The position numbers and the translations under genes were made by a program. 55,159 nt of DNA from Minisyncoccia bacterium (GTDB lineage: Bacteria; Patescibacteriota; Minisyncoccia; Phycocordibacterales; DATDWN01). Positions 689 to 51,204 of the stretch are shown one piece after another. Where the stretch lies: assembly GCA_049296855.1 (NCBI GenBank), contig JBAQTF010000014.1, positions 1-55,159 on the forward strand, written 5' to 3'. Below the pieces are notes generated by a model. It saw only the letters and a list, made by a program, of their open reading frames with translations. It searched no databases and was not told the origin of the DNA. The stretch's first letter is position 1. Each line of letters starts with the position of its first letter.

Positions 689-1376
689 ACTGGTGAGAGG
701 AGATGTTGTGTTGAACTTTTTTGATAGCCTCTGCCGCTGCTGTCTGTCCTCCAAGACCAAATGATAGTCCTAGGGCAAGAGAGATTGCAACTACAAACCC
801 AGTAAATAGTGTCTGAATAAATGCTCCTGCAATTCCCATTTGTGAAAGAGACACTAGGATTGCAAAAATCCATACTGCCCATCTTGAAACTACTCCCAAG
901 AAATTTGCCTGTGTCAGCCCTGCCGTATGCGCACCAGCAGAAACGACTTTTGAGAGAACATCACCGACAACACCTCCAACAAGAAGAATAAGTACGGCAA
1001 TGATGAGTTGTGGAATATATCCAACAACTATCTGCTGTAGAAAAGCTGTTACTTGATTTAAACCAAGAACATCAAAACTAGCAATCAAAAATACTAATAT
1101 TATAAAGTATTTTACCAACCCTCCGACAAAATGACCTGAATTCAAATTTAGTCCAGATCTTTTAACCAAATCCTCGAAACCTGCCTTTTGTAAAGCTTCG
1201 TCAAATTTAATCATCTTCATGAAATGCGCGATGCCTTTTGCTACGATAGACCCTATAGCCCAACCAATGCACAAGATAACTAACGCTACAATCAAGTTCG
1301 GAATGAACATAACAACTCCAGTCCAAAGTCCTTGAAAAGAAGTTCTCAAAACTTGACTCCATGTTTCTAGAATCAT
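687..1376 (-). CDS. Multi-pass membrane protein with repeated TM-helix segments (small mechanosensitive-channel-like / conserved TM helix type)
   Basis: 229-aa ORF with several hydrophobic helices. The family assignment is by resemblance only. Confidence 0.6.
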   Translation of the reverse strand: MILETWSQVLRTSFQGLWTGVVMFIPNLIVALVILCIGWAIGSIVAKGIAHFMKMIKFDEALQKAGFEDLVKRSGLNLNSGHFVGGLVKYFIILVFLIASFDVLGLNQVTAFLQQIVVGYIPQLIIAVLILLVGGVVGDVLSKVVSAGAHTAGLTQANFLGVVSRWAVWIFAILVSLSQMGIAGAFIQTLFTGFVVAISLALGLSFGLGGQTAAAEAIKKVQHNISSHQ

Positions 1377-7887: not shown

Positions 7888-7999
7888 ATATATGTTTTTA
7901 ATAAAATAACTTTCTCTATCCTTACTATTAATAATTTTAATAGAGATGAAGTTATGGAAAACGATTAACGCTATTAATACTAACTGAATAATTTTTGAC

Positions 8000-8055
8000 G
8001 TTGCCGTAAACAATTGGATGTAAAAATAAATTTACATTCAATTTTTTACGGCAAC
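8000..8055. other. Long hairpin upstream of the giant surface-protein gene
   Basis: gttgccgtaaa (8000-8010) pairs with tttacggcaac (8045-8055). Inner stem is atgtaaa / tttacat. Confidence 0.6.
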
Positions 8056-8404
8056 ACCGCATACTAATTCTTTTGCTTTATATTTTACCTCTATCTCCAC
8101 ATTTGAAGAAACCGAGCATTTCAACGCAAAGCAAAAAAATAGATGATGAATTTGGTCTGAATATCTATCACTACTTATCGTAAAGGGATTATCGGAAATG
8201 TCTGAGAACATGACGTGAATCATGTTTTTATAAATCCATATTTATTTGTCAAAGTACTTATCCGTTCCGAACCTACCATAGAAACTCTGTGGCAGAAATG
8301 AGTGCAGTATTACGCATAGTATTATTAACACTAGTACGTAGAACACATTATATCCCCTCTATATCAGAGTTTCAAATGTGTCTGTGTGGATAACTCTAGT
8401 TTTT

Positions 8405-8445
8405 TTGGCTATTATATTGAGTAAATTACTCAATATAATAGCCAA
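8405..8445. other. Perfect 18-bp hairpin downstream of the 8531..9280 gene
   Basis: ttggctattatattgagt-aaatt-actcaatataatagccaa. A T-run precedes it on the + strand and an A-run follows it on the minus strand, so it is not a classic terminator. Confidence 0.6.
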
Positions 8446-8530
8446 ATTAGGACCGAAATCACCCACCCGATCAATCCTCCCATATAATAGGTACAGAAGT
8501 CAACTAAAACCCCCTTGACGAATCTATTGA

Positions 8531-9280
8531 CTATCCGTTTAACGAGTATTTACTCCATCTCCTTTCACCAACCCTTTTAACAATACCCGAGAGAATAAGT
8601 GCTATAAGCTCTCTCTGAACCGTCTTTTCACTACAATCTTTAATTACCAGAGCAATATCCTTAATCGTTAACTCCTTCTTTTTCTTCAATAAACCAATGA
8701 TTATGTTCTGTCTATTTGACTTTCTAAGCTCGTCCCTATGAGAAATGGTAATGTTGTCCCTTATATCTATATAGGACAACATATTCTTAGCATGAGATAC
8801 TCCACTTTTGACACCTTGTAAGTCTGGCGGAGTAATCTCAAAAAAACCTTCAGGTAAAGTTGAATGACTCCTTTCATTAAAAGATGAACTGGTGCTGACA
8901 AATACATCTACTAAATTCAGAAATTCTTGCTTGAGAATAGAGTAATTCATATGAGAAATAAGACCTCCATTGGAAGATACATCAAGAAAAGAGACTATTT
9001 CGAGTACCCTACTTTTTATATTATAAATAAAACTAGATTGTTCTGACTCTGTTAAGTCCTTATATGAGACTGTAAAAGACAATAGATCAGAAACTTTCTT
9101 ACGAAGTCCCCATTTAATTGGCTCATTATCAGACAACAAATTAGTGACCATGTAGACTGCTGATGCCAGTTTTTCTGTCTTTTTATAGACAAAAACAAAA
9201 TTAACATTATTACCAAAAAGTGATAACCCGTCAGTGTTTTTTGTAACTAGATTGGTTGTAATTTTCTTATCCTGTTCCAT
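8531..9280 (-). CDS. Hypothetical protein with C-terminal winged-helix (DeoR-like) HTH
   Basis: C-terminus LTIKDIALVIKDCSEKTVQRELIALILSGIVKRVGERRWSKYSL. Confidence 0.65.
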   Translation of the reverse strand: MEQDKKITTNLVTKNTDGLSLFGNNVNFVFVYKKTEKLASAVYMVTNLLSDNEPIKWGLRKKVSDLLSFTVSYKDLTESEQSSFIYNIKSRVLEIVSFLDVSSNGGLISHMNYSILKQEFLNLVDVFVSTSSSFNERSHSTLPEGFFEITPPDLQGVKSGVSHAKNMLSYIDIRDNITISHRDELRKSNRQNIIIGLLKKKKELTIKDIALVIKDCSEKTVQRELIALILSGIVKRVGERRWSKYSLNG

Positions 9281-9530
9281 ATATTTTAGGACTTATATAA
9301 TGAATATGTCTCTTAGTGTCTTAAATACATAACCCTATGTCCTTATATTGTCTTATATAATACCAAATGTCCTTGATAGTGTCAAGCATTCCTCTACTAT
9401 ACAACACTCAAGGACAGTTATGTAAACCTCCACTACATAGTGCCCAATCAAATCGCCCTAGTAACTAAGAACCAACACTTTGAAAAATGGGTTTCGGATT
9501 AAGCTTTTATTTGCTAAAATATACGTGTAT

Positions 9531-9586
9531 GTCCTACCACAAGAGTACTTCTTGTGTTTATAATTCGCTACGCTCATAATAAAACA
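9531..9586 (+). promoter_or_regulatory. ftsK promoter cassette: family-3 core followed by TTTATAAT and TCATAAT boxes
   Basis: gtcctaccacaagagtacttcttgtgtttataattcgctacgctcataataaaaca-ATG. About 85% identical to the recO upstream region (rc of 23248-23303). Confidence 0.6.
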
Positions 9587-11806
9587 ATGTCGAGAAAAGA
9601 CAATAAGGAAAACAAAAAAGATCGAAGAAAAGACGATAATGATGAGGGTGGAGTTGACGGATACTTACACGAGGAAACTATACGAGCTATCATAGCGGTA
9701 TTGTTTTTTGTTCTTGGAGTATTTTTAGTATTGTCTTCTGGAACACTCGACAAGGGTGGTTCTGTAGGACGTGGTGCATATAAATTATTTCATTATCTGT
9801 TCGGTATTGGATATTATCTTTTACCTGCATTGTTTTTTGTTCTGTGTGTTTCTTTCTTTAGATCACTGCATAAAAAACTAGTTCTTACACACAGTATAGG
9901 CGGACTATTATTTTTTCTATCGGGTCTATCTCTTATAAACATAACTACACCACAAGCAGGTGGGCTTATTGGCGCACAAATATCTGCTCCACTTATTATT
10001 CTATTTGATACTGCAGTGAGTGTAATCATTCTCATCGCATTAATAATAATTTCTTTTTTGGTTATGTTTGATGTCCCTCTACGTTTTGGATTCATCACTT
10101 CCCTATTTAACTCAATCTTTAAAAAGAAAAATGTCTTACCTGATGAGGAAGATATTAGCTCGGGCTTGATAATTGCAAATCCAGAACAATTAAATGATGA
10201 TAAACAAAAAGAAATACAGACATCTTTATCTACACTATCTGAACAAGCAAAAGAGTCTAGGTCGTCTAAAAAACCCTCAAACGGTCCTGACGAATTCGGT
10301 ATTAGTCCATTATTACTAAATGGCAAGGAATTTGTGCCTCCACCATTATCACTCCTTGATATTGATAAAGGTAAACCAGGAGTTGGAGATATTAAAGCTA
10401 ACTCGAATATAATAAAGAGAACTCTATCCAACTTTGGAATAAATGTTGAAATGGATGAGATATCAATCGGACCATCTATCACAAGATACGCTTTGAAACC
10501 GGCAGAAGGTATAAAATTATCTAGAATAGTTGGACTTCAAAATGATCTTTCACTCGCTCTTGCAGCACATCCATTACGTATTGAGGCTCCGATTCCAGGA
10601 AAATCACTAGTGGGTATCGAGATACCTAATAACACAAAAACGACTGTTGGTCTTGGAACTCTACTCAGTGCACTGGAGTTTCAGAACTCAGACAAGCCAC
10701 TTTTAATCTCGCTTGGTAAAGGTATATCAGGAATGTCATATTTTGCTAACTTAGCAAAAGCACCACACCTCCTTATTGCTGGTGCAACGGGGTCGGGAAA
10801 ATCCGTGACTATTCATACTGTTATTACATCGCTCTTGTATCGCAATTCTCCAGACAACTTGAAATTTATAATGGTTGATCCGAAACGTGTCGAATTAACT
10901 CTTTATAACAAAATTCCGCATCTCCTTACTCCAGTCATTACAGACGCAAAGAAAACTATTCTGGCTTTAAAATGGGCAGCAAAGGAAATGGATAGACGTT
11001 ACGATATATTACAAGCAGAAAGTCTACAAAACATTTCTTCATATCATAAAAATATCGTCGAGCCAGCAATCAAGAAGGCTATGAAAAACAAAGACGACGA
11101 ACCTATCAAAATCGAAACAATGCCTTATATTATCATCGTCATCGACGAACTGGCAGACATCATGTCGGCATATCCGAGAGAACTTGAATCAGCTATCGTT
11201 CGTCTGGCTCAAATGTCTCGTGCTGTCGGAATTCACCTTATATTATCAACTCAGCGCCCTTCGGTAAACGTTATCACTGGTCTTATAAAAGCCAACATAC
11301 CGTCCCGTATAGCCCTCCAAGTGGCCTCACAAATCGACTCTCGAACTATCCTCGACATGGGTGGAGCAGAAAAACTCCTCGGTGCTGGAGATATGCTCTA
11401 TCTATCTGGTGATATGTCACAACCCCAACGTATTCAATCTGCCTATATATCTGAGGCCGAGACAAAAAATGTGGTGAAATATCTAGTAAACAGCTATAAA
11501 GACGAAATTCCAAATGAAATAAACTTAACTGGCGAAAATCAAAAGAATAATATATTTGAAGCAACAATTGAGGATGAAAAAATGGAGGAGGATGATGACT
11601 TGTACGAAGAAGCAAAACAAACCGTCCTCGAAGCTGGAAAAGCCAGCACCTCTTATCTACAACGCAAATTAGGCATTGGATATGCACGTGCAGCACGACT
11701 TATAGATATTTTAGAGGAACGTGGAATAATCGGTCCTGGTTCTGGGGCAAAACCACGAGAAGTAATGGGAAGAAGTAGCGCACCGACCGAAGAAACTGTA
11801 GAGTAG
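9587..11806 (+). CDS. ftsK: DNA translocase FtsK/SpoIIIE
   Basis: N-terminal TM helices, Walker A GATGSGKS, VIDELADIM, and a C-terminal gamma wHTH (SYLQRKLGIGYARAARLIDILEERGI). The start is taken at ATG 9587 (MSRKD) rather than GTG 9554. Confidence 0.9.
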   Translation: MSRKDNKENKKDRRKDDNDEGGVDGYLHEETIRAIIAVLFFVLGVFLVLSSGTLDKGGSVGRGAYKLFHYLFGIGYYLLPALFFVLCVSFFRSLHKKLVLTHSIGGLLFFLSGLSLINITTPQAGGLIGAQISAPLIILFDTAVSVIILIALIIISFLVMFDVPLRFGFITSLFNSIFKKKNVLPDEEDISSGLIIANPEQLNDDKQKEIQTSLSTLSEQAKESRSSKKPSNGPDEFGISPLLLNGKEFVPPPLSLLDIDKGKPGVGDIKANSNIIKRTLSNFGINVEMDEISIGPSITRYALKPAEGIKLSRIVGLQNDLSLALAAHPLRIEAPIPGKSLVGIEIPNNTKTTVGLGTLLSALEFQNSDKPLLISLGKGISGMSYFANLAKAPHLLIAGATGSGKSVTIHTVITSLLYRNSPDNLKFIMVDPKRVELTLYNKIPHLLTPVITDAKKTILALKWAAKEMDRRYDILQAESLQNISSYHKNIVEPAIKKAMKNKDDEPIKIETMPYIIIVIDELADIMSAYPRELESAIVRLAQMSRAVGIHLILSTQRPSVNVITGLIKANIPSRIALQVASQIDSRTILDMGGAEKLLGAGDMLYLSGDMSQPQRIQSAYISEAETKNVVKYLVNSYKDEIPNEINLTGENQKNNIFEATIEDEKMEEDDDLYEEAKQTVLEAGKASTSYLQRKLGIGYARAARLIDILEERGIIGPGSGAKPREVMGRSSAPTEETVE

Positions 11807-23360: not shown

Positions 23361-26300
23361 TTATTTCATAATGGAGAAAGATATCTCCCCATCTGATTCA
23401 ACGATATAATTTTGTTTTTCTTTTGAATATAAAATTTCCGTTATTTGAGTTGGTAACTTTATCATCTCAACATAATAATCAATTAAATTTTGTTTATTTG
23501 TACAGACAACTATTTTTATATTATCACTTGGACTAAGTTTCTCTGTCTTTCTGGCATCTTGAATAGCTCGTATAATATCTCGGGCAATTCCTTCTTCTTT
23601 TAATTCTTCCGTAAGATTTGTGTCTAATTTTATTTCTTTTCCAACTTTAACTTTTTTAACGTTGACCTCATCAGCAATAATATCTAATAGTTCTCGTGAA
23701 AATTTTTGTGGGATAGTAAGTGAAGCTAATGGTTGCCTAACTTTATGTCCTGCTTTTTGACGAAGTTCTAATGCACCTGAAACAACTTCTCGGACTTTTT
23801 GCATATCCTGAAGTAGAATTTCATCCACTATATCGCCTTTTGGCCAATCACATAGATGCACACTTTCTGGGTCACTATTTGATTTTATTTTTTGATATAC
23901 ATCTTCGGCAAAGAAAGGTGTAAATGGCGCCATATATTTCACAAACTCGAAAAGAACAAAAAGTGTGGTGGACAATGCATCATTTCTCTCTTGTTTATTG
24001 TCTGATTTGAAACGATCACGCGAACGACGAATATACCAAGTAGAAAAATCGTTTATAAAATCACGAGTTAGACGTGCAGACTCAAACACTTGAAATTTTT
24101 CAAGTGACTCTGTTCCGTTTTTTATAAGCTGACCTAATCTACTCAAAATCCATTTATCCAAAACATTTTTACTTTGGTTATTTGGTCTTGTATTACTGTC
24201 CTTATATAACTCATAGAAAGCCAGGATATTTAAGGCTGGATTAAAAACTTTTTTAAGTATTTCATCAACCGTTTTCTCGTCAAAGTTTTTGGAATCCCCT
24301 GGCTGGTTAACTGTGTACATCCACAAACGTAAAGCGTCCACTCCATATTTATCCATCAATTCCCAAGGATCCAAAATATTACCAATAGACTTTGACATCT
24401 TCCTCCCATCCTTATCCAAGATATGTCCAAGACAAATGACATTTTTATATGCTTTCCCTCTACCCATCAAAATCCCGATAGCATGTAAAGTGTAAAACCA
24501 CCCTCTGGTTTGATCTATAGCTTCAGAAATAAAATCTGCGGGGTAAGCAAGTTTTTCTTTATTAAAAGGATGATGATCCTGAGCAAAAGGCATACTACCT
24601 GAATCAAACCAAACATCCATAACTTCTTTTACCCTTTTTAGTGGATCACCTTTTTCATCAACAAGCTCAACAGAATCTATATATGGCTTATGTAAATCAA
24701 TTTCATATTTATCGTTATGTGGCATTTTTACGAAATCAATCTCTCTTATCTCTGCATTATCGAAATTTTTAAATTCTTTTGTTATTTTTGAAAGATTTCT
24801 ATACGAAAAACCCTTTGAAATCATTTCGATAGCACGACATGGGGCTCCATGAGAAATGATGAGAATATTCTTATCTTTATATTTTTCATCAGTTTCATAC
24901 ATAAATTTACTTAATCTTTGTAAAACTTCATTGTACGATTCCCCATCAGAAACTTTAAAAGCATACCTGTCTTCACTTTTGTTACGCACAGCAAAGAAAT
25001 CTTCCACAGACTTATGGTTAAATTCTCGACCAGTGTTCCATTCTCCTAAGCCAGAATCAGTAATAATTTTATCCTTTGAAAGTCCTATGATTTTTGCAAT
25101 CAAAACTGCAGTCTCCTGTGTTCTAGAAAATGGCGAAACAATGATTAGATCAATAGACTTGTCAGACAGGAATCTGGCAGTTTCTTTTACTTTCTCCGTA
25201 CCACTATTTGTCAAAGGATCTGAAACATCGAAATTTAGGTTTAATATTTTTTTTACATTTCCTTCTGTCTCACCATGTCGCATTACAAAATACTTATTAC
25301 CAGATTTTTTAGAATATTTCTTCAAATCTTCAACACTTCCTACAACTCGATAATTACCATCTTTGTCAGACCAGATAGGAAGTGGCGTCCCCCAATATCT
25401 CTCGCGGCTTATTGCCCAATCTTTTATTTCACGAAGCCACTCACCAAAACGTCCTTCTTTTATATGCTCTGGTTCCCAATGAATATCTTCATTTTCCCTT
25501 ACTAGTTCATCGCGTAATTTGGATATAGCGATATACCAAGAATCCCTAGCATAGTAGATAAGCGGGGTGCTACATCTCCAACAATGAGGATATGAGTGTT
25601 CATATTTTTCTTTTTTAAAAAGTAAACCTCGGTGAGCTAAATCCTTTATAATACCCACTGCAACTTCCTCGTCTTTTACAAACCGATCAGACAAAAAACC
25701 CATTCCGTCAGCAAAATACCCATCCTCTTTTACAAGGTGGTATTTTGGCAAACCGATTTCATTTCCCAGAACAAAATCGTCCTGACCATACATGACAGCA
25801 GTATGGACAACTCCTGTTCCATCTTCTGTGTTGACAAAATCCGCAGAATAAACTTGATACGACTTTTCAAAAGCAATCTTATCTTTTTCTCCAAACTTTT
25901 CTCTCATAAAAGGATATAGTGGTTCGTATTCCATTCCAACACATTCGCTCCCTTTGTGTTCAGCAATTATCTCGAATGGTTCTGTGATTATCGCAAGTCT
26001 ATCCTTTGCTAAAACTAAAATCTCGTCACCGACTTTTGCCTCGACATAAGTAATGTCTTTACCAACTGCGAGTGCAACATTTCCAGGTAAAGTCCAAGGA
26101 GTCGTCGTCCATGCCAAAAAATAACCCTTATCAAATCCCTTTAATTTAAACTTCACTGTAACTGACAAATCTTTATCATCTTGATACCCCTGTGCTAATT
26201 CATGAGAAGATAATGCCGTTCCACAACGAGGGCACCACGGCAAAACTTTGTAGTCTTTGTACAAAAGTTTCTCCTCGTCTACTGTCTTTAGAATATTCCA

Positions 26301-26801
26301 AACGGACTCTATATAGTCCGTATCAAAAGTATAGTAAGCATCTTTCTTATCAACCCAATACCCAATACGATCGGTAAAAACTTCCCAATCATGAACATAA
26401 TCAAACACACTTTGCTTACACTCTTTATTAAACTTCTCTATTCCATAAATCTCAATTTCTTTTTTTGACTTTAGTCCAAGCTTTTTCTCTATTTGTAATT
26501 CAACAGGCAAACCATGTGTGTCCCAGCCACCTTTTCTCCGTACATGAAATCCCTGCATAGTTTTATAACGAGGAATGATATCTTTAAAAACCCGGGCTTC
26601 GAGATGATGCAAAGCTGGTTTTGCATTTGCCGTTGGCGGACCTTCATAGAAAACAAAATTACCCTTTGAAGACGATCTCTCCAGAGTCTTTTTAAAAATC
26701 TCTTTTTCATTCCAAAACTCTAGTATCTTCTCTTCTCTTTTTGATAGATCACTTTTGAGTGTTTTTGGAGCTTTATCTTCGCTACCTTTCATAGAAGCCA
26801 T
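23361..26801 (-). CDS. ileS: Isoleucyl-tRNA synthetase (type 2-like) with an inserted histidine-phosphatase (phosphoglycerate-mutase-like) domain
   Basis: PPTANAKPALHH, KMSKSIGN, DQTRGWFY. The insert is YFVMRHGETEGN...SPFSRTQETA...ISHGAP, lying between PLPIW and DLHKPYID. The start is taken at MASMKG (26801) or MKG (26792). Confidence 0.9.
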   Translation of the reverse strand: MASMKGSEDKAPKTLKSDLSKREEKILEFWNEKEIFKKTLERSSSKGNFVFYEGPPTANAKPALHHLEARVFKDIIPRYKTMQGFHVRRKGGWDTHGLPVELQIEKKLGLKSKKEIEIYGIEKFNKECKQSVFDYVHDWEVFTDRIGYWVDKKDAYYTFDTDYIESVWNILKTVDEEKLLYKDYKVLPWCPRCGTALSSHELAQGYQDDKDLSVTVKFKLKGFDKGYFLAWTTTPWTLPGNVALAVGKDITYVEAKVGDEILVLAKDRLAIITEPFEIIAEHKGSECVGMEYEPLYPFMREKFGEKDKIAFEKSYQVYSADFVNTEDGTGVVHTAVMYGQDDFVLGNEIGLPKYHLVKEDGYFADGMGFLSDRFVKDEEVAVGIIKDLAHRGLLFKKEKYEHSYPHCWRCSTPLIYYARDSWYIAISKLRDELVRENEDIHWEPEHIKEGRFGEWLREIKDWAISRERYWGTPLPIWSDKDGNYRVVGSVEDLKKYSKKSGNKYFVMRHGETEGNVKKILNLNFDVSDPLTNSGTEKVKETARFLSDKSIDLIIVSPFSRTQETAVLIAKIIGLSKDKIITDSGLGEWNTGREFNHKSVEDFFAVRNKSEDRYAFKVSDGESYNEVLQRLSKFMYETDEKYKDKNILIISHGAPCRAIEMISKGFSYRNLSKITKEFKNFDNAEIREIDFVKMPHNDKYEIDLHKPYIDSVELVDEKGDPLKRVKEVMDVWFDSGSMPFAQDHHPFNKEKLAYPADFISEAIDQTRGWFYTLHAIGILMGRGKAYKNVICLGHILDKDGRKMSKSIGNILDPWELMDKYGVDALRLWMYTVNQPGDSKNFDEKTVDEILKKVFNPALNILAFYELYKDSNTRPNNQSKNVLDKWILSRLGQLIKNGTESLEKFQVFESARLTRDFINDFSTWYIRRSRDRFKSDNKQERNDALSTTLFVLFEFVKYMAPFTPFFAEDVYQKIKSNSDPESVHLCDWPKGDIVDEILLQDMQKVREVVSGALELRQKAGHKVRQPLASLTIPQKFSRELLDIIADEVNVKKVKVGKEIKLDTNLTEELKEEGIARDIIRAIQDARKTEKLSPSDNIKIVVCTNKQNLIDYYVEMIKLPTQITEILYSKEKQNYIVESDGEISFSIMK

Positions 26802-26805
26802 ATTA

Positions 26806-28509
26806 TCACATTTTCTCTGGAATTTTAATCCCCAATAAATTAAGACCGGAAGCCATAACTTGAACAAATACCTTCGTTATGGCCAAACGATAAGAAGAAG
26901 ATTTGTCTTCTACATCTATTATTTTGTGTGAGGCATAAAATGAATTGAACTCACCCGCCAGTTCAATGAGATACGTTGCAATATGGTGTGGAGCATATTC
27001 CATTCCCGCTCGAGCAACAATGTCTGGAAACCTCTCAAGATACCTCTCAAGATTTGTCGTCTCCCACTCACTCGGAAGCTTGGTTTCTGATTTCACAAAG
27101 GGGTCCCCTTTGTGGAATTCTTTTTCGGATTTTTTCAGGACAGATTTTGCTCTCACAGCGGAATACTGCAGATATGGCCCTGAATCCCCCTCAAAAGATA
27201 TGGATTTATCAAAATCAAAAATAATATCACCGCCGATAGCCTGCCGAAGTATCGAGTATTTTATCGCACCGATTGCTATTTGCTCAGCCAAAATTACCTT
27301 TTGTGTGTCATCAATATCCTTATGAAGTTGGCCACTGTCCCACATCTTTTCCAAAACCCTATCTTGCGTTTGCTGAATCAGAGCTTCCGCAGAAATGATA
27401 TTCCCTTCTCGCGATGACATTTTCCCTGTTGGAAGTTTCAAAAGCCCATGTGACAAATGAGTCAACTTTCCTTTTAAATCTGGAAAAACTTCACCAATAG
27501 CCACTTCCACCACTTTGAAAAACGAATCCTGTTCATTTGCCGTGACTGTTATGGACATATCATATGAAAACCAATCTTTTTTTATCTGAGCCAGACCGAG
27601 CTCTTTGGCTTCATATGTCGGCAGACCTTCAGAGTTTAGAAAGACTCTTGTGTGGGTTTTTGGCTCAAAGTTTTCTCCTTTGAAGATAACTGCACCCTTC
27701 ACACCTTTTTCGAAAACTTTACCAACATTTTCCAAAACTAACTCTTTACCGACTTCTCCACTTTCACTTTCAAAAAAGTGATAATCAAAATGATTATCTA
27801 ATTTTTCGTATAATTTTTCAAAATATTCTACCGATTCCTGCCTACCACCCTCATATATTTTATTTATCTCTGGATCACTTTCATCGTATATTTTTGTGTT
27901 TATTTTTGTTATTTCCCGTTTTGCTTTTTCGTCATCTTCATATGCCTTATGTCCAAAAGCATAAGCTTCTTTTATAGAAATGCCTTGCTTTAACGCCCAG
28001 ACGGCTTTGGCGACATGCAAACCAACATCACCATGATATGTAGCAGTTTGCACTTCTGCACCGTTTGCTTTAACAATTCTTGCTACAGACTCCCCTATAG
28101 TATTGTTCATCAAATGCCCTATGTGAAATGTTTTAAAAGGGTTTGGTTGAGTGTGTTCAATGAAAACTTTGTAACCTTTTGCATGTTCATTTTTTCCGTA
28201 TTCACTATCTTTCAAAATATCTTTCACAACATCACCAAAATATTCTTTGTCGAAAGAAAAATTTATAAATCCTGGAGCGACAACCCTGATTTTGATTTGC
28301 TTTAGCAAATCACCCTGAGTAAGTCGAAGGGTTATCTCCTCTGCTAGGTCAATCGGTTTATTCCTCAGCTCTTTTGCATAGGCCATAGCAACATTCGTCG
28401 AATAATCCCCCTTATCGAGATAAACAGAGGGTGTCAGTCTAACCTTAGGATTTTTAATTCCTTTTTTCTCCAGGAAACTCTTTATTTCTTTTTCCAATGT
28501 TTCCTTCAT
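26806..28509 (-). CDS. argS: Arginyl-tRNA synthetase
   Basis: NPFKTFHIGHLMN (HIGH motif), 567 aa, with an ArgRS-like N-terminal additional domain. Confidence 0.9.
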   Translation of the reverse strand: MKETLEKEIKSFLEKKGIKNPKVRLTPSVYLDKGDYSTNVAMAYAKELRNKPIDLAEEITLRLTQGDLLKQIKIRVVAPGFINFSFDKEYFGDVVKDILKDSEYGKNEHAKGYKVFIEHTQPNPFKTFHIGHLMNNTIGESVARIVKANGAEVQTATYHGDVGLHVAKAVWALKQGISIKEAYAFGHKAYEDDEKAKREITKINTKIYDESDPEINKIYEGGRQESVEYFEKLYEKLDNHFDYHFFESESGEVGKELVLENVGKVFEKGVKGAVIFKGENFEPKTHTRVFLNSEGLPTYEAKELGLAQIKKDWFSYDMSITVTANEQDSFFKVVEVAIGEVFPDLKGKLTHLSHGLLKLPTGKMSSREGNIISAEALIQQTQDRVLEKMWDSGQLHKDIDDTQKVILAEQIAIGAIKYSILRQAIGGDIIFDFDKSISFEGDSGPYLQYSAVRAKSVLKKSEKEFHKGDPFVKSETKLPSEWETTNLERYLERFPDIVARAGMEYAPHHIATYLIELAGEFNSFYASHKIIDVEDKSSSYRLAITKVFVQVMASGLNLLGIKIPEKM

Positions 28510-39697: not shown

Positions 39698-39787
39698 AAG
39701 GAACTAGTATAGCACAAAGTTTCTCACTTACTTCCGACTCCATTTATCTTACTTAAGGCAATTTTTGTCTTAACTAAAAGCATATTT

Positions 39788-39942
39788 TGGGTGGCTACTG
39801 GGAGATTCGACCCTTACATGGTCAGTACCCTAATTGGATATTTTATTTCGTAAACTCATAAAATATCTCAATCGGGCTTCGACTCCAGCCGTAAGTGCTC
39901 CCAGCACTTACTTAGCCACATAAAATAACTTCGTTATTTTTG
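39788..39942 (-). ncRNA. tRNA-trailer structured element (His copy), tRNA-like closing stem
   Basis: Lies directly 3' of tRNA-His. It ends in a 17-nt exact copy (39788-804) of the tRNA 3' end (39941-57). The 5' GUGGCUA pairs with the 3' UAGCCAC. Homologous to 45333-45483 and 51015-51158. Confidence 0.7.
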
Positions 39943-40014
39943 GGTGGCTACTGGGAGTCGAACCCAGACAGAGAGCTCCACAAGCTCGCGTGCTACCGCT
40001 ACACCATAGCCACC
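39943..40014 (-). tRNA. tRNA-His (GUG) with encoded G-1
   Basis: Hand-folded cloverleaf: G-1 opposite discriminator C, anticodon loop UUGUGGA, T-arm CUGGG-UUCGACU-CCCAG. No encoded CCA. Confidence 0.9.
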
Positions 40015-43199: not shown

Positions 43200-43359
43200 A
43201 TAACCACTAGAGCAGTATATGTGAATTCTGACTTTATTTCAAACTAAAAAACCCTTGCATGGCTAGTATACCTTTTTGATTTTTATTCGTTTAACTCAAA
43301 AAAATCTAAAGAAGGTATTAAGAAGTGACAGAGGTCACTTCTTACCTTTCGGATGATTT

Positions 43360-45332: not shown

Positions 45333-45483
45333 CAAAAAGCCGAAGGGCTTTTGTGGGTGATGAGAAAGTGCTGAGAACACTTTCGTGAGGATTCGAAGCC
45401 TGAATGAGATATTTTACGAGCTTTGCGAAATAAAATATCCAATTGGGATACTGAGTCTGTAAGACTCGAGTCCTCCATCCCGA
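45333..45483 (+). ncRNA. tRNA-trailer structured element (Val copy)
   Basis: Starts with hairpin aaaagcc-gaag-ggctttt and ends in a 17-nt exact copy (45466-82) of the tRNA-Val 3' end (45314-30). Homologous to the His and Arg copies. Confidence 0.7.
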
Positions 45484-51014: not shown

Positions 51015-51158
51015 CTAAAATTGACGTTCGGAAATTTTGTGCTCCGCAGAAAGTCATGGGACGACTTTCGCTAGGAATCGAAAACCTTTGATAGTTTTTT
51101 AGACAAAAAACAGAAAAGGTGTACCGTTCCTGTAAGGAAAGATTCCTGGTGAGAGCAC
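51015..51158 (+). ncRNA. tRNA-trailer structured element (Arg copy)
   Basis: Ends in gattcctggtgagagcac (51141-58), a copy of the tRNA 3' end (50998-51015) with 1 mismatch. The 5' GUGCUC (51039-44) pairs with GAGCAC (51153-58). Same hairpin order as the Val and His copies. Confidence 0.65.
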
Positions 51159-51176: not shown

Positions 51177-51202
51177 TAAAAAACCGTGAGCCACGGTTTT
51201 TT
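51177..51202. terminator. Bidirectional terminator (rpsT side and tRNA-Arg side)
   Basis: aaaaaaa-ccgtg-agc-cacgg-tttttt. Confidence 0.75.
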
Positions 51203-51204
51203 GA

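Follow-up and report, generated by a model that had tools for sequence, protein, structure and literature searches.

The 55,159-nucleotide contig JBAQTF010000014.1 of a Minisyncoccia bacterium (GenBank assembly GCA_049296855.1; this whole stretch is referred to as the window) carries, directly behind its tRNA-His gene, an element in which a constant core is framed by an inverted and a direct copy of the 3′ end of that tRNA. Units of the same family stand behind many different tRNA genes in Patescibacteria, with arms that match the tRNA next to each. We give roughly an even chance (a probability of about 0.5) to the reading that the element is a repeated insertion cassette without proteins of its own, one that is gained and lost, is directed at tRNA 3′ ends and codes for a mimic of the upper half of a tRNA. 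The family is apparently previously undescribed. Full-text literature searches found no description of it, and we are aware of no published example in which a constant folded core is joined to inverted and direct copies of each host tRNA 3′ end.

The element behind tRNA-His

The host gene, tRNA-His(gtg), was located at 39942-40014 on the minus strand (ARAGORN; 58.4 bits with the Rfam tRNA model), with its body at 39942-40013 and G-1 encoded at 40014. An earlier, sequence-only reading of the window had noticed that the last 17 nucleotides (nt) of the tRNA recur downstream. This segment (CTCCCAGTAGCCACCCA) is indeed present exactly twice in the window (39941-39957 and 39788-39804), with 0 occurrences expected from 100 shuffles, and the direct repeat is even longer than had been noticed: a perfect 20 nt (39938-39957 = 39785-39804) at a spacing of 153. 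The first repeat copy, segment A (39938-39957, minus strand; 100% identity in the repeat search), contains the end of the T loop, the 3′ strands of the T stem and the acceptor stem, the discriminator and four trailer nucleotides. The second, segment C (39785-39804, minus strand; pattern count and repeat search), is a direct copy of A and supplies the 3′ strands of two helices, P3 (39798-39804) and P1 (39791-39797). The flank after C (AAAATATG) resembles the trailer of an empty tRNA-His site in a relative, L017 (AAAATGAT; L-numbers such as L001, L017 and L058 are labels of the compared genome loci).

Read along the tRNA strand, the order is tRNA (with A as its 3′ part), spacer hairpin, B1, A-G, P2, C-G, B2, TCGAA, P4, UAC, P5, (C)GA and C. 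Two modules are constant, namely the hairpin P2 and a P4-UAC-P5 domain that begins with TCGAA; three parts are variable and derived from the tRNA, namely the palindromic spacer hairpin, the inverted copy B1 plus B2, and the direct copy C. All lie on the minus strand at the His locus. The spacer hairpin (39922-39940; repeat and palindrome scans) has eight base pairs (bp) made of A and T only, a 3-nt loop and the arms AAAATAAC and GTTATTTT, and forms the tip of an imperfect palindrome that links A to B1. B1 (39913-39919; repeats, fold, and alignment of the reverse complement of B to A) is the 5′ strand of P1, GTGGCTA, and is an inverted copy of the acceptor 3′ strand. P2 (39891-39911; repeat search) is the conserved hairpin GTAAGTGCT-GGG-AGCACTTAC with near-invariant A-G and C-G flanks, and is placed at the T-stem/acceptor junction of the inverted copy. 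B2 (39878-39888; repeats, duplex energies and alignment) consists of the 5′ strand of P3, CTGGAG, plus TCGAA, and is an inverted copy of tRNA-His positions 54-65. P4 (39828-39877; fold) is a long irregular A/U-rich hairpin, near the tip of which a tandem G-A motif was read by eye as possible. It is followed by the invariant UAC linker and the P5 hairpin with its conserved UGUAA(G/U) loop (39809-39827; alignments A2 and A3, covariation).

The 7-bp acceptor-like stem that had been proposed from the letters is thus formed by GTGGCTA (39913-39919) and TAGCCAC (39791-39797), and it extends to 15 nt at 87% complementarity. The inverted copy on the 5′ side of the element is longer than the 7-nt acceptor strand: it covers the whole 3′ part of the tRNA, beginning at T54 and reaching into the trailer, and is split by P2. 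The description of a segment that begins and ends like tRNA-His around an unrelated interior of about 125 nt was borne out by alignment and covariation. Two other details of the sequence-only reading stood in part. A spacer hairpin does follow tRNA-His, and its GAAG loop is confined to the His and Val copies; it is no conserved GAAG hairpin, as the loops differ in other genomes and the hairpin belongs to the palindrome with the tRNA end. The string TGCTATACT, taken as the promoter of the ABC exporter, is present at 39706-39714 as stated and is absent from the list of a simple promoter scan.

The family-invariant P2 loop CUGGGAG (39898-39904) exactly complements the T-stem 3′ strand of tRNA-His, CUCCCAG (39798-39804 and 39951-39957). 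This complementarity is probably a coincidence, because the loop is unchanged at other tRNAs.

A covarying core with a tRNA-like predicted fold

The core was examined in two alignments, A2 (20 copies, made with MAFFT) and A4 (45 distinct copies, fitted to the covariance model R1). In A2, 96% of the cells are paired and 22 pairs changed on both sides; in A4, 94.4% of the cells are paired and 33 of the 34 pairs changed on both sides. None of 500 shuffles was as good in either alignment, and slid controls of A4 paired only 36-46% of the cells. Covariation backs P2, both the outer and the inner helices of P4, P5 and the inner part of P3. P2 was fixed by the search pattern, so that its covariation was judged via copies that the model found later; all nine of its pairs covary among the 45 sequences, and its loop and the flanking AG/CG remain constant. 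G-U wobbles outnumber A-C cells by 54 to 16, and the tRNA-sense strand is therefore the folding one. Compensatory changes and a one-strand wobble bias, the general marks of a structured RNA, are both present, and A2 agrees with the model-fitted A4.

Taken alone, the His element folds at z = −5.3 relative to shuffles (Val copy −4.4, Arg copy −4.8). In the modeled tRNA-strand fold, an acceptor-like P1 would stack on a T-stem-like P3, P2 would take the place of the D and anticodon arms, and P4/P5 would be inserted in the T loop. The predicted fold would mimic the upper half of the neighbouring tRNA, that is, the acceptor stem plus the T arm.

Copies in the window and in other genomes

The window contains seven tRNA genes, of which three to four carry a unit. 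The claim that the interior of the His copy is homologous to a Val and an Arg copy was upheld, since it aligns with units behind tRNA-Val(tac) and tRNA-Arg(gcg). The Val copy (about 45334-45482, plus strand; 109 bits with the covariance model) is of the same subtype as the His copy and repeats 17 nt of the tRNA 3′ end, the final acceptor bases being mutated. The Arg copy (about 51016-51158, plus strand; 93 bits) is of a different subtype with a short P4, and its copied 3′ end has one mismatch; a real terminator comes next, at 51177-51203. The tRNA concerned is the gcg one (50943) and not the tct one (46079), because the interior aligns with about 51016-51158. The stretch separating tRNA-Leu(gag) from the gene for ribosomal protein L19 contains a fourth, decayed copy (43246-43345, minus strand; 30.7 bits, E = 4e-5), which has kept hairpins like P2, P4 and P5 and lost TCGAA and the arms. 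No unit was found behind tRNA-Leu, tRNA-Arg(tct) or tRNA-Ser in the window; tRNA-Lys is at the window edge and its downstream side lies outside the sequence.

The decayed copy is upstream of tRNA-Leu(gag), and in L017 an element lies downstream of that tRNA. A hammerhead-like GATGAG...CGTGAGG in the Val copy was rejected by eye, being not conserved among the other copies.

A pattern made of P2 and the TCGAA box was used to scan 185,579 species genomes and matched 29 loci. Twenty-six are true copies; three chance matches (L019, L024 and L028, in Devosia and Kapaibacterium) were set aside. The true loci all belong to Patescibacteria where named (Saccharibacteria, Paceibacteria, Nomurabacteria and Taylorbacteria), and the compared genomes are metagenome assemblies throughout. 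Because the family seed is this single pattern, other subtypes are under-sampled. Model R1, run on the loci from the genome scan, gave 46 matches at E ≤ 1e-7 and about 55 at E < 1e-3 within these loci. A tRNA lies at most 90 nt upstream on the same strand in 32 of the 42 matches checked, and the remaining copies mostly follow another unit or a segment resembling a tRNA 3′ end. The occupied tRNAs comprise at least 20 isoacceptors for 12 amino acids. The unit is about 135-155 bp long and has no reading frame.

Searches of RNA and viral collections did not place the element in a known family. At the gathering threshold, the 4227 models of Rfam 15 (introns, ribozymes, Y RNA, HEARO and T-box among them) matched only tRNAs in the window and in eight other loci; applied to the His region at E ≤ 10, they gave no more than chance-level matches, and the tRNA model gave none. 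ARAGORN, run for tRNA and transfer-messenger RNA (tmRNA), found no gene at 39785-39941 and no tmRNA in the window. Three scans of IMG/VR viral contigs, with patterns for P2, P4/P5 and subtype B, returned 0, 1 and 0 matches and no true copy, the single match (7.9 bits, inside a reading frame) being due to chance. No partner protein accompanies the copies either: an all-versus-all comparison of reading frames over 27 loci brought up nothing beyond housekeeping genes in synteny and spurious frames that overlie the element, and no recombinase or reverse transcriptase was detected in or beside copies by this comparison and by Pfam analysis of the neighbours. Pfam searches of the neighbours, the large window proteins and the small array frames gave housekeeping domains only, plus one weak phage-like match.

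Other module types were observed that keep the TCGAA junctions and replace P4/P5, with GTCGGGGTCGCGAG...CTTGTGACC or CAGATTGGCGG...CCAATCTG (L005 2040-2600, minus strand; L009 5039-5164; L026 4370-5800; L055 1300-1845, minus strand). These units are nested or concatenated, and L026 has small unannotated frames (105 and 68 amino acids) between units. A small hairpin, TTTGGGG(T/A)GGGACCCAAA, also recurs near trailer elements or tRNA genes (L007, about 1375-1400; L010, about 1895-1965; L015, near 740).

The arms are copies of the neighbouring tRNA

When reverse-complemented and joined, B2 and B1 align to the neighbouring tRNA over T54, the T-stem 3′ strand, the acceptor 3′ strand, the discriminator and 4-6 trailer nucleotides. 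This inverted copy is interrupted at the T-stem/acceptor junction by P2 and about 2 nt. Since B2 is complementary to T-loop bases 59-60 and B1 to the trailer, neither is a copy of a tRNA 5′ strand. Alignment to the neighbouring tRNAs identifies C as a direct copy from the T loop onward, and the direct repeats in other copies measure 15-30 nt. Tandem decay of tRNA-His, with chance similarity to the other loci, would account for both acceptor strands and the T-stem 3′ strand held in common with tRNA-His, and is almost certainly wrong, given that no tRNA model (ARAGORN or Rfam) matches the segment, that the 5′ strands complement the 3′ strand down to T-loop bases and trailer, and that the reading is excluded by model R1 matches, by covariation and by the homology of the interior to copies at other tRNAs and at 26 loci elsewhere.

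The specificity of the arms was measured as mean duplex energies. B1 pairs with its own tRNA at −15.0 kcal/mol (mismatched control −8.3) and with C at −10.4 (control −7.0); the corresponding values for B2 are −18.5 (control −12.1) and −14.1 (control −9.9). Pairing of the inverted copy B with the real tRNA 3′ end is therefore no weaker than its pairing with C. B and C have similar edit distances from the tRNA. No compensatory change between B and C was seen, each drifting independently from the tRNA; where C is mutated B still matches the tRNA, and the converse holds too.

The core does not track the tRNA type. The core of the window His copy is 96% identical to that of a Cys copy (L012), with every arm base different, and only 85% identical to that of another His copy (L030). 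In five copies a perfect palindrome with 21-27-nt arms (50-59 bp) spans the tRNA end, the spacer and B1. Variants exist that lack P2, and so have one contiguous 21-nt inverted copy, or that lack B1.

Gain, loss and stacking at tRNA genes

The sequence-only reading had suggested a look at orthologous tRNA-His loci, and these provided empty sites. In L017 (where the tRNA is identical), L044 and L045, tRNA-His has no element and a single 3′ end, and L044 keeps the M16 peptidase-tRNA-His-exporter synteny. The element is absent from relatives identified through the ABC exporter (79-92% identity); tRNA-His is present but empty in two of them, and the others are rearranged. Metagenome relatives of the M16 peptidase (46-51% identity) have no tRNA-His nearby, and that scan is therefore uninformative.

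Occupancy varies at other tRNAs as well. The tRNA-Arg(tct) site is empty in the window, with a 10-nt spacer to a convergent gene, and the orthologous site in L017 spans 212 nt that hold a hairpin plus a module. The tRNA-Val gene has a subtype A unit in the window, two identical subtype B units in L017 and another type in L055. The tRNA-Leu(gag) gene is empty in the window and occupied in L017. Tandem arrays occur in L005, L017 and L026; they reach up to four units, some of them rearranged, as at tRNA-Arg in L005 and tRNA-Gln in L026. In two independent assemblies of the window's organism (L001 and L002), contigs break at or inside the tRNA-His element, which is expected because the element is a repeat.

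Many UppS-bearing contigs of relatives are just 1-2 kb long. In L045 (about 715-765, minus strand), a mini tRNA-His-like fragment of about 48 nt, consisting of the tRNA-His 5′ strand GGTGGCTATGGTGT, a short hairpin and ATAAGCCACCA, lies just upstream of the intact tRNA-His.

A serine-recombinase island at tRNA-Val in relatives

In relatives with a 77% identical UppS, a large serine recombinase gene (499-524 amino acids) overlaps the tRNA-Val 3′ end; in L058 the 524-residue recombinase overlapping tRNA-Val(tac) is at 7976-9886, and the gene is also found in L049, L050 and L051. On both sides of the recombinase lies a perfect inverted repeat of 149 bp, of which the last 7 nt of tRNA-Val form part. 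An adjoining second perfect inverted pair of 414 bp (L058 4415-4828 and 7572-7985) encloses a 2.7-kb gene block. The island looks invertible, and L048 appears to be its inversion isomer. At the far end of the island in L058, 5.7 kb away, there is a trailer module that contains copies of the 3′ segment of tRNA-Val, and a homologous module lies directly behind tRNA-Val in L055, which has no island. Since L055 has the module at tRNA-Val without the island, the island in L058 looks like a newcomer, that is, a separate, later insertion between tRNA-Val and a pre-existing module.

The serine recombinase was accordingly set aside as a part of the element: the comparison of L055 with L058 suggests independent insertions, and no link to the module was established. 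The island does make plain that recombination in these genomes uses tRNA 3′ ends as targets, and that inverted copies of such ends can be made by enzymes of this kind.

Interpretation

The reading to which we give about an even chance is that of a non-autonomous mobile cassette that would enter at the 3′ segment of a tRNA gene, in a way that resembles Campbell-type integration of islands at tRNA genes. Insertion would keep the tRNA intact and leave behind a copy of its 3′ end, and the arms would be derived from the target, or corrected to match it, at the time of insertion. The enzyme would act in trans, the large serine recombinases at tRNA-Val 3′ ends being candidates only. The core would be kept since the element or the host needs the folded strand, presumably as RNA and less likely as single-stranded DNA (ssDNA).

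Several points weigh against such a cassette. No insertion event was caught between near-identical genomes: the empty sites come from distant relatives (55-80% protein identity), too far apart to pin down the exact inserted unit or the mechanism. No enzyme acting in trans on the element was identified. Spacer hairpins differ between copies with near-identical cores, so simple reintegration of a fixed circle does not fit, and the constant P2 junction inside inverted copies of differing tRNAs is unexplained. The appearance of recent spread could also be produced by strong purifying selection on the core, and B and C lack the compensatory changes that would attest selection on the cis tRNA-like stems.

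The strongest competing explanation, unlikely as it seems to us, is a resident functional RNA that acts in cis. It would be co-transcribed with its tRNA by read-through and form a three-segment switch (A, anti-A, A) controlling the folding, maturation or 3′-end formation of that tRNA, with gains and losses being ordinary gene turnover; in a variant of this view it would be a processing signal of the RNase P or RNase Z type, like plant mitochondrial t-elements or mascRNA. The constant placement on the tRNA strand, directly 3′ of the tRNA, and the strongly conserved, covarying core are what such an RNA would show. The whole tRNA-His-plus-element transcript has a predicted minimum free energy of −95.5 kcal/mol (z = −7.1), in a fold where B would pair with the 3′ half of the tRNA and C with its 5′ acceptor strand, and the duplex energies likewise favour B with the tRNA over B with C. 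Read-through is compatible with the spacer hairpins of the three window copies (His, Val and Arg), which are too weak to be scored as terminators, but many copies elsewhere have strong G+C-rich spacer stems followed by T runs, which should stop transcription. Also at odds with a resident RNA are the empty sites in relatives and the copies that decay, truncate and stack up to four deep, the reach of the pairing into the gene-specific trailer, the independent drift of B and C, and the service of one core type to many tRNAs with swapped arms.

An RNA-guided form of targeting is improbable. Here the element would be a programmable guide plus scaffold (P2, P4 and P5), with no protein gene of its own, that reads the last ~22 nt of the tRNA gene, B1/B2 pairing with the sense strand and C with the other; an enzyme acting in trans, for example a serine recombinase or a reverse transcriptase, would write the element and copy the target into both ends. 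The arm is bipartite around a conserved hairpin, complements a contiguous target of ~22 nt and lies beside a conserved scaffold; the direct repeat is about as long as the paired region; the element encodes no protein; near-identical cores bear different arms, whose agreement with the target would be explained; and synthesis by snap-back or fold-back would be in keeping with the perfect palindromes at the left junction. Against this, no partner protein is known and none recurs near copies at the 27 loci, a guide carried by the donor alone cannot explain retargeting to a new tRNA, P2-less variants with a contiguous inverted copy exist, and the arms drift after insertion like neutral sequence. 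Were it true, it would be a new way to choose and mark integration sites, specific to Patescibacteria.

More doubtful again is a folded ssDNA attachment site, for which phage CTX integration by XerCD and integron attC sites are the named analogues. B and C would anneal, for example after DNA uptake, and rebuild the duplex tRNA 3′ end with P2 bulged out, and a host or island recombinase would join it to the chromosomal tRNA gene. B-C pairing does reproduce the target duplex, the wobble bias is compatible with one folded strand of either DNA or RNA, and the palindromes of 50-59 bp at the tRNA end, together with the serine recombinases and their perfect inverted repeats on tRNA-Val 3′ ends of relatives, point the same way. 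No conserved recombination core such as the integron R box was seen by eye in the copies, however; the conserved loops (UGGGA, UGUAA and UAC) and the possible tandem G-A motif look like features of an RNA or of protein recognition; and no recombinase link was shown, nor was the element present in the viral contigs scanned.

The chance is slimmer still that the units are leftover junctions of large islands or prophages, the direct repeat being an old attR and the body deleted. Attachment sites in tRNA genes typically show such a direct repeat, from the T loop to the 3′ end; the L058 module lies 5.7 kb from tRNA-Val beyond a recombinase island, and L026 has open reading frames between units. The same ~135 nt would nevertheless have to be spared by each of dozens of independent deletions, structural selection acts on the core, the L055 module directly after tRNA-Val makes the L058 island the newcomer, and no integrase was found near copies at the 27 loci.

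If the element is a mobile cassette, it would be a new kind of target-tailored element, and it may explain the frequent contig breaks beside tRNA genes in assemblies of these bacteria. If the RNA acts on its tRNA, it would add a new layer of tRNA biology in a lineage with an already unusual translation apparatus. Genomes of Patescibacteria are tiny (about 1 Mb), yet three to four of the seven tRNA genes in the window have a unit, and one core is shared by several candidate phyla. With model R1 and the rules for the arms, the family can be annotated, counted and tested.

Genomic context

The window is an ordinary chromosome segment that encodes aminoacyl-tRNA synthetases, RecA, FtsK, RuvA, UppS and PilM. 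The closest relatives that have a name belong to the Parcubacteria group of Patescibacteria. The gene at 23361-26867 (minus strand) encodes a class I aminoacyl-tRNA synthetase of the Ile/Leu/Val/Met type (1168 amino acids), the two catalytic-domain halves of which are split by a His_Phos_1 histidine-phosphatase domain (residues 527-695).

Comparison with known systems

The 3′ ends of tRNA genes are attachment sites of prophages, genomic islands and integrative and conjugative elements (ICEs). The element shares with these a direct repeat that runs from the T loop to the 3′ end and beyond, an intact tRNA, empty sites with a single 3′ end and tandem accumulation at one tRNA; both the flanking 3′-part repeat and the single-copy empty sites that characterize tRNA-targeting integrative elements were found, and no integrase or recombinase was found inside it. 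It differs from them in being ~135-155 bp long and gene-free, in its covarying core, in the inverted target copy split by a hairpin, and in the use of one core type at 20 or more tRNAs with arms matching each. Miniature inverted-repeat transposable elements (MITEs) and cis-mobilisable ICE derivatives are likewise short elements in many copies that encode no protein, are presumably mobilised in trans and vary in presence from one relative to the next. MITEs, in contrast, have terminal inverted repeats that are constant across copies and flanked by short target duplications; here the inverted ends differ at every tRNA and equal the target, and the interior is constant.

Among tRNA-like RNAs, the tRNA-like domain of tmRNA, YrlA, mascRNA, t-elements and viral tRNA-like structures also place an acceptor-like stem on a T-stem-like helix and have the other arms replaced by different structure; the element retains a TCGAA remnant of the T loop. 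None of them is fitted anew to the sequence of an adjacent tRNA, and none contains an exact copy of that tRNA's 3′ end. Here P1 pairs through the discriminator into the trailer, which leaves no encoded free NCCA end, and ARAGORN and the Rfam models recognize the element as neither tRNA, tRNA pseudogene nor tmRNA.

Integron attC sites and the attP of phage CTX also conserve structure over sequence, with palindromes beside the insertion point and cassette-like arrays; the present loci, unlike these, have no integron integrase or Xer context, and they combine tRNA-derived arms with a large conserved core. No shared attC-like core was seen in the palindromes by eye (no attC model was run), and there is no integrase in the loci. 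Bipartite guides, namely the target loop of the IS110 bridge RNA, the H/ACA guide pocket and the exon-binding sites EBS1/EBS2 of group II introns, similarly use two segments to match a contiguous target. They differ in that the element has no adjacent gene for an IS110 recombinase, reverse transcriptase, Cas or ribonucleoprotein, and that a sense copy of the target is present; none of the copies contains or adjoins an IS110 recombinase gene, the hallmark of a bridge RNA, and the ribozyme and intron models of Rfam 15 do not match the element. The element appears to lack a defining feature of every family considered. By analogy, it would work most like an island at a tRNA 3′ end and fold most like a mimic of the upper half of a tRNA.

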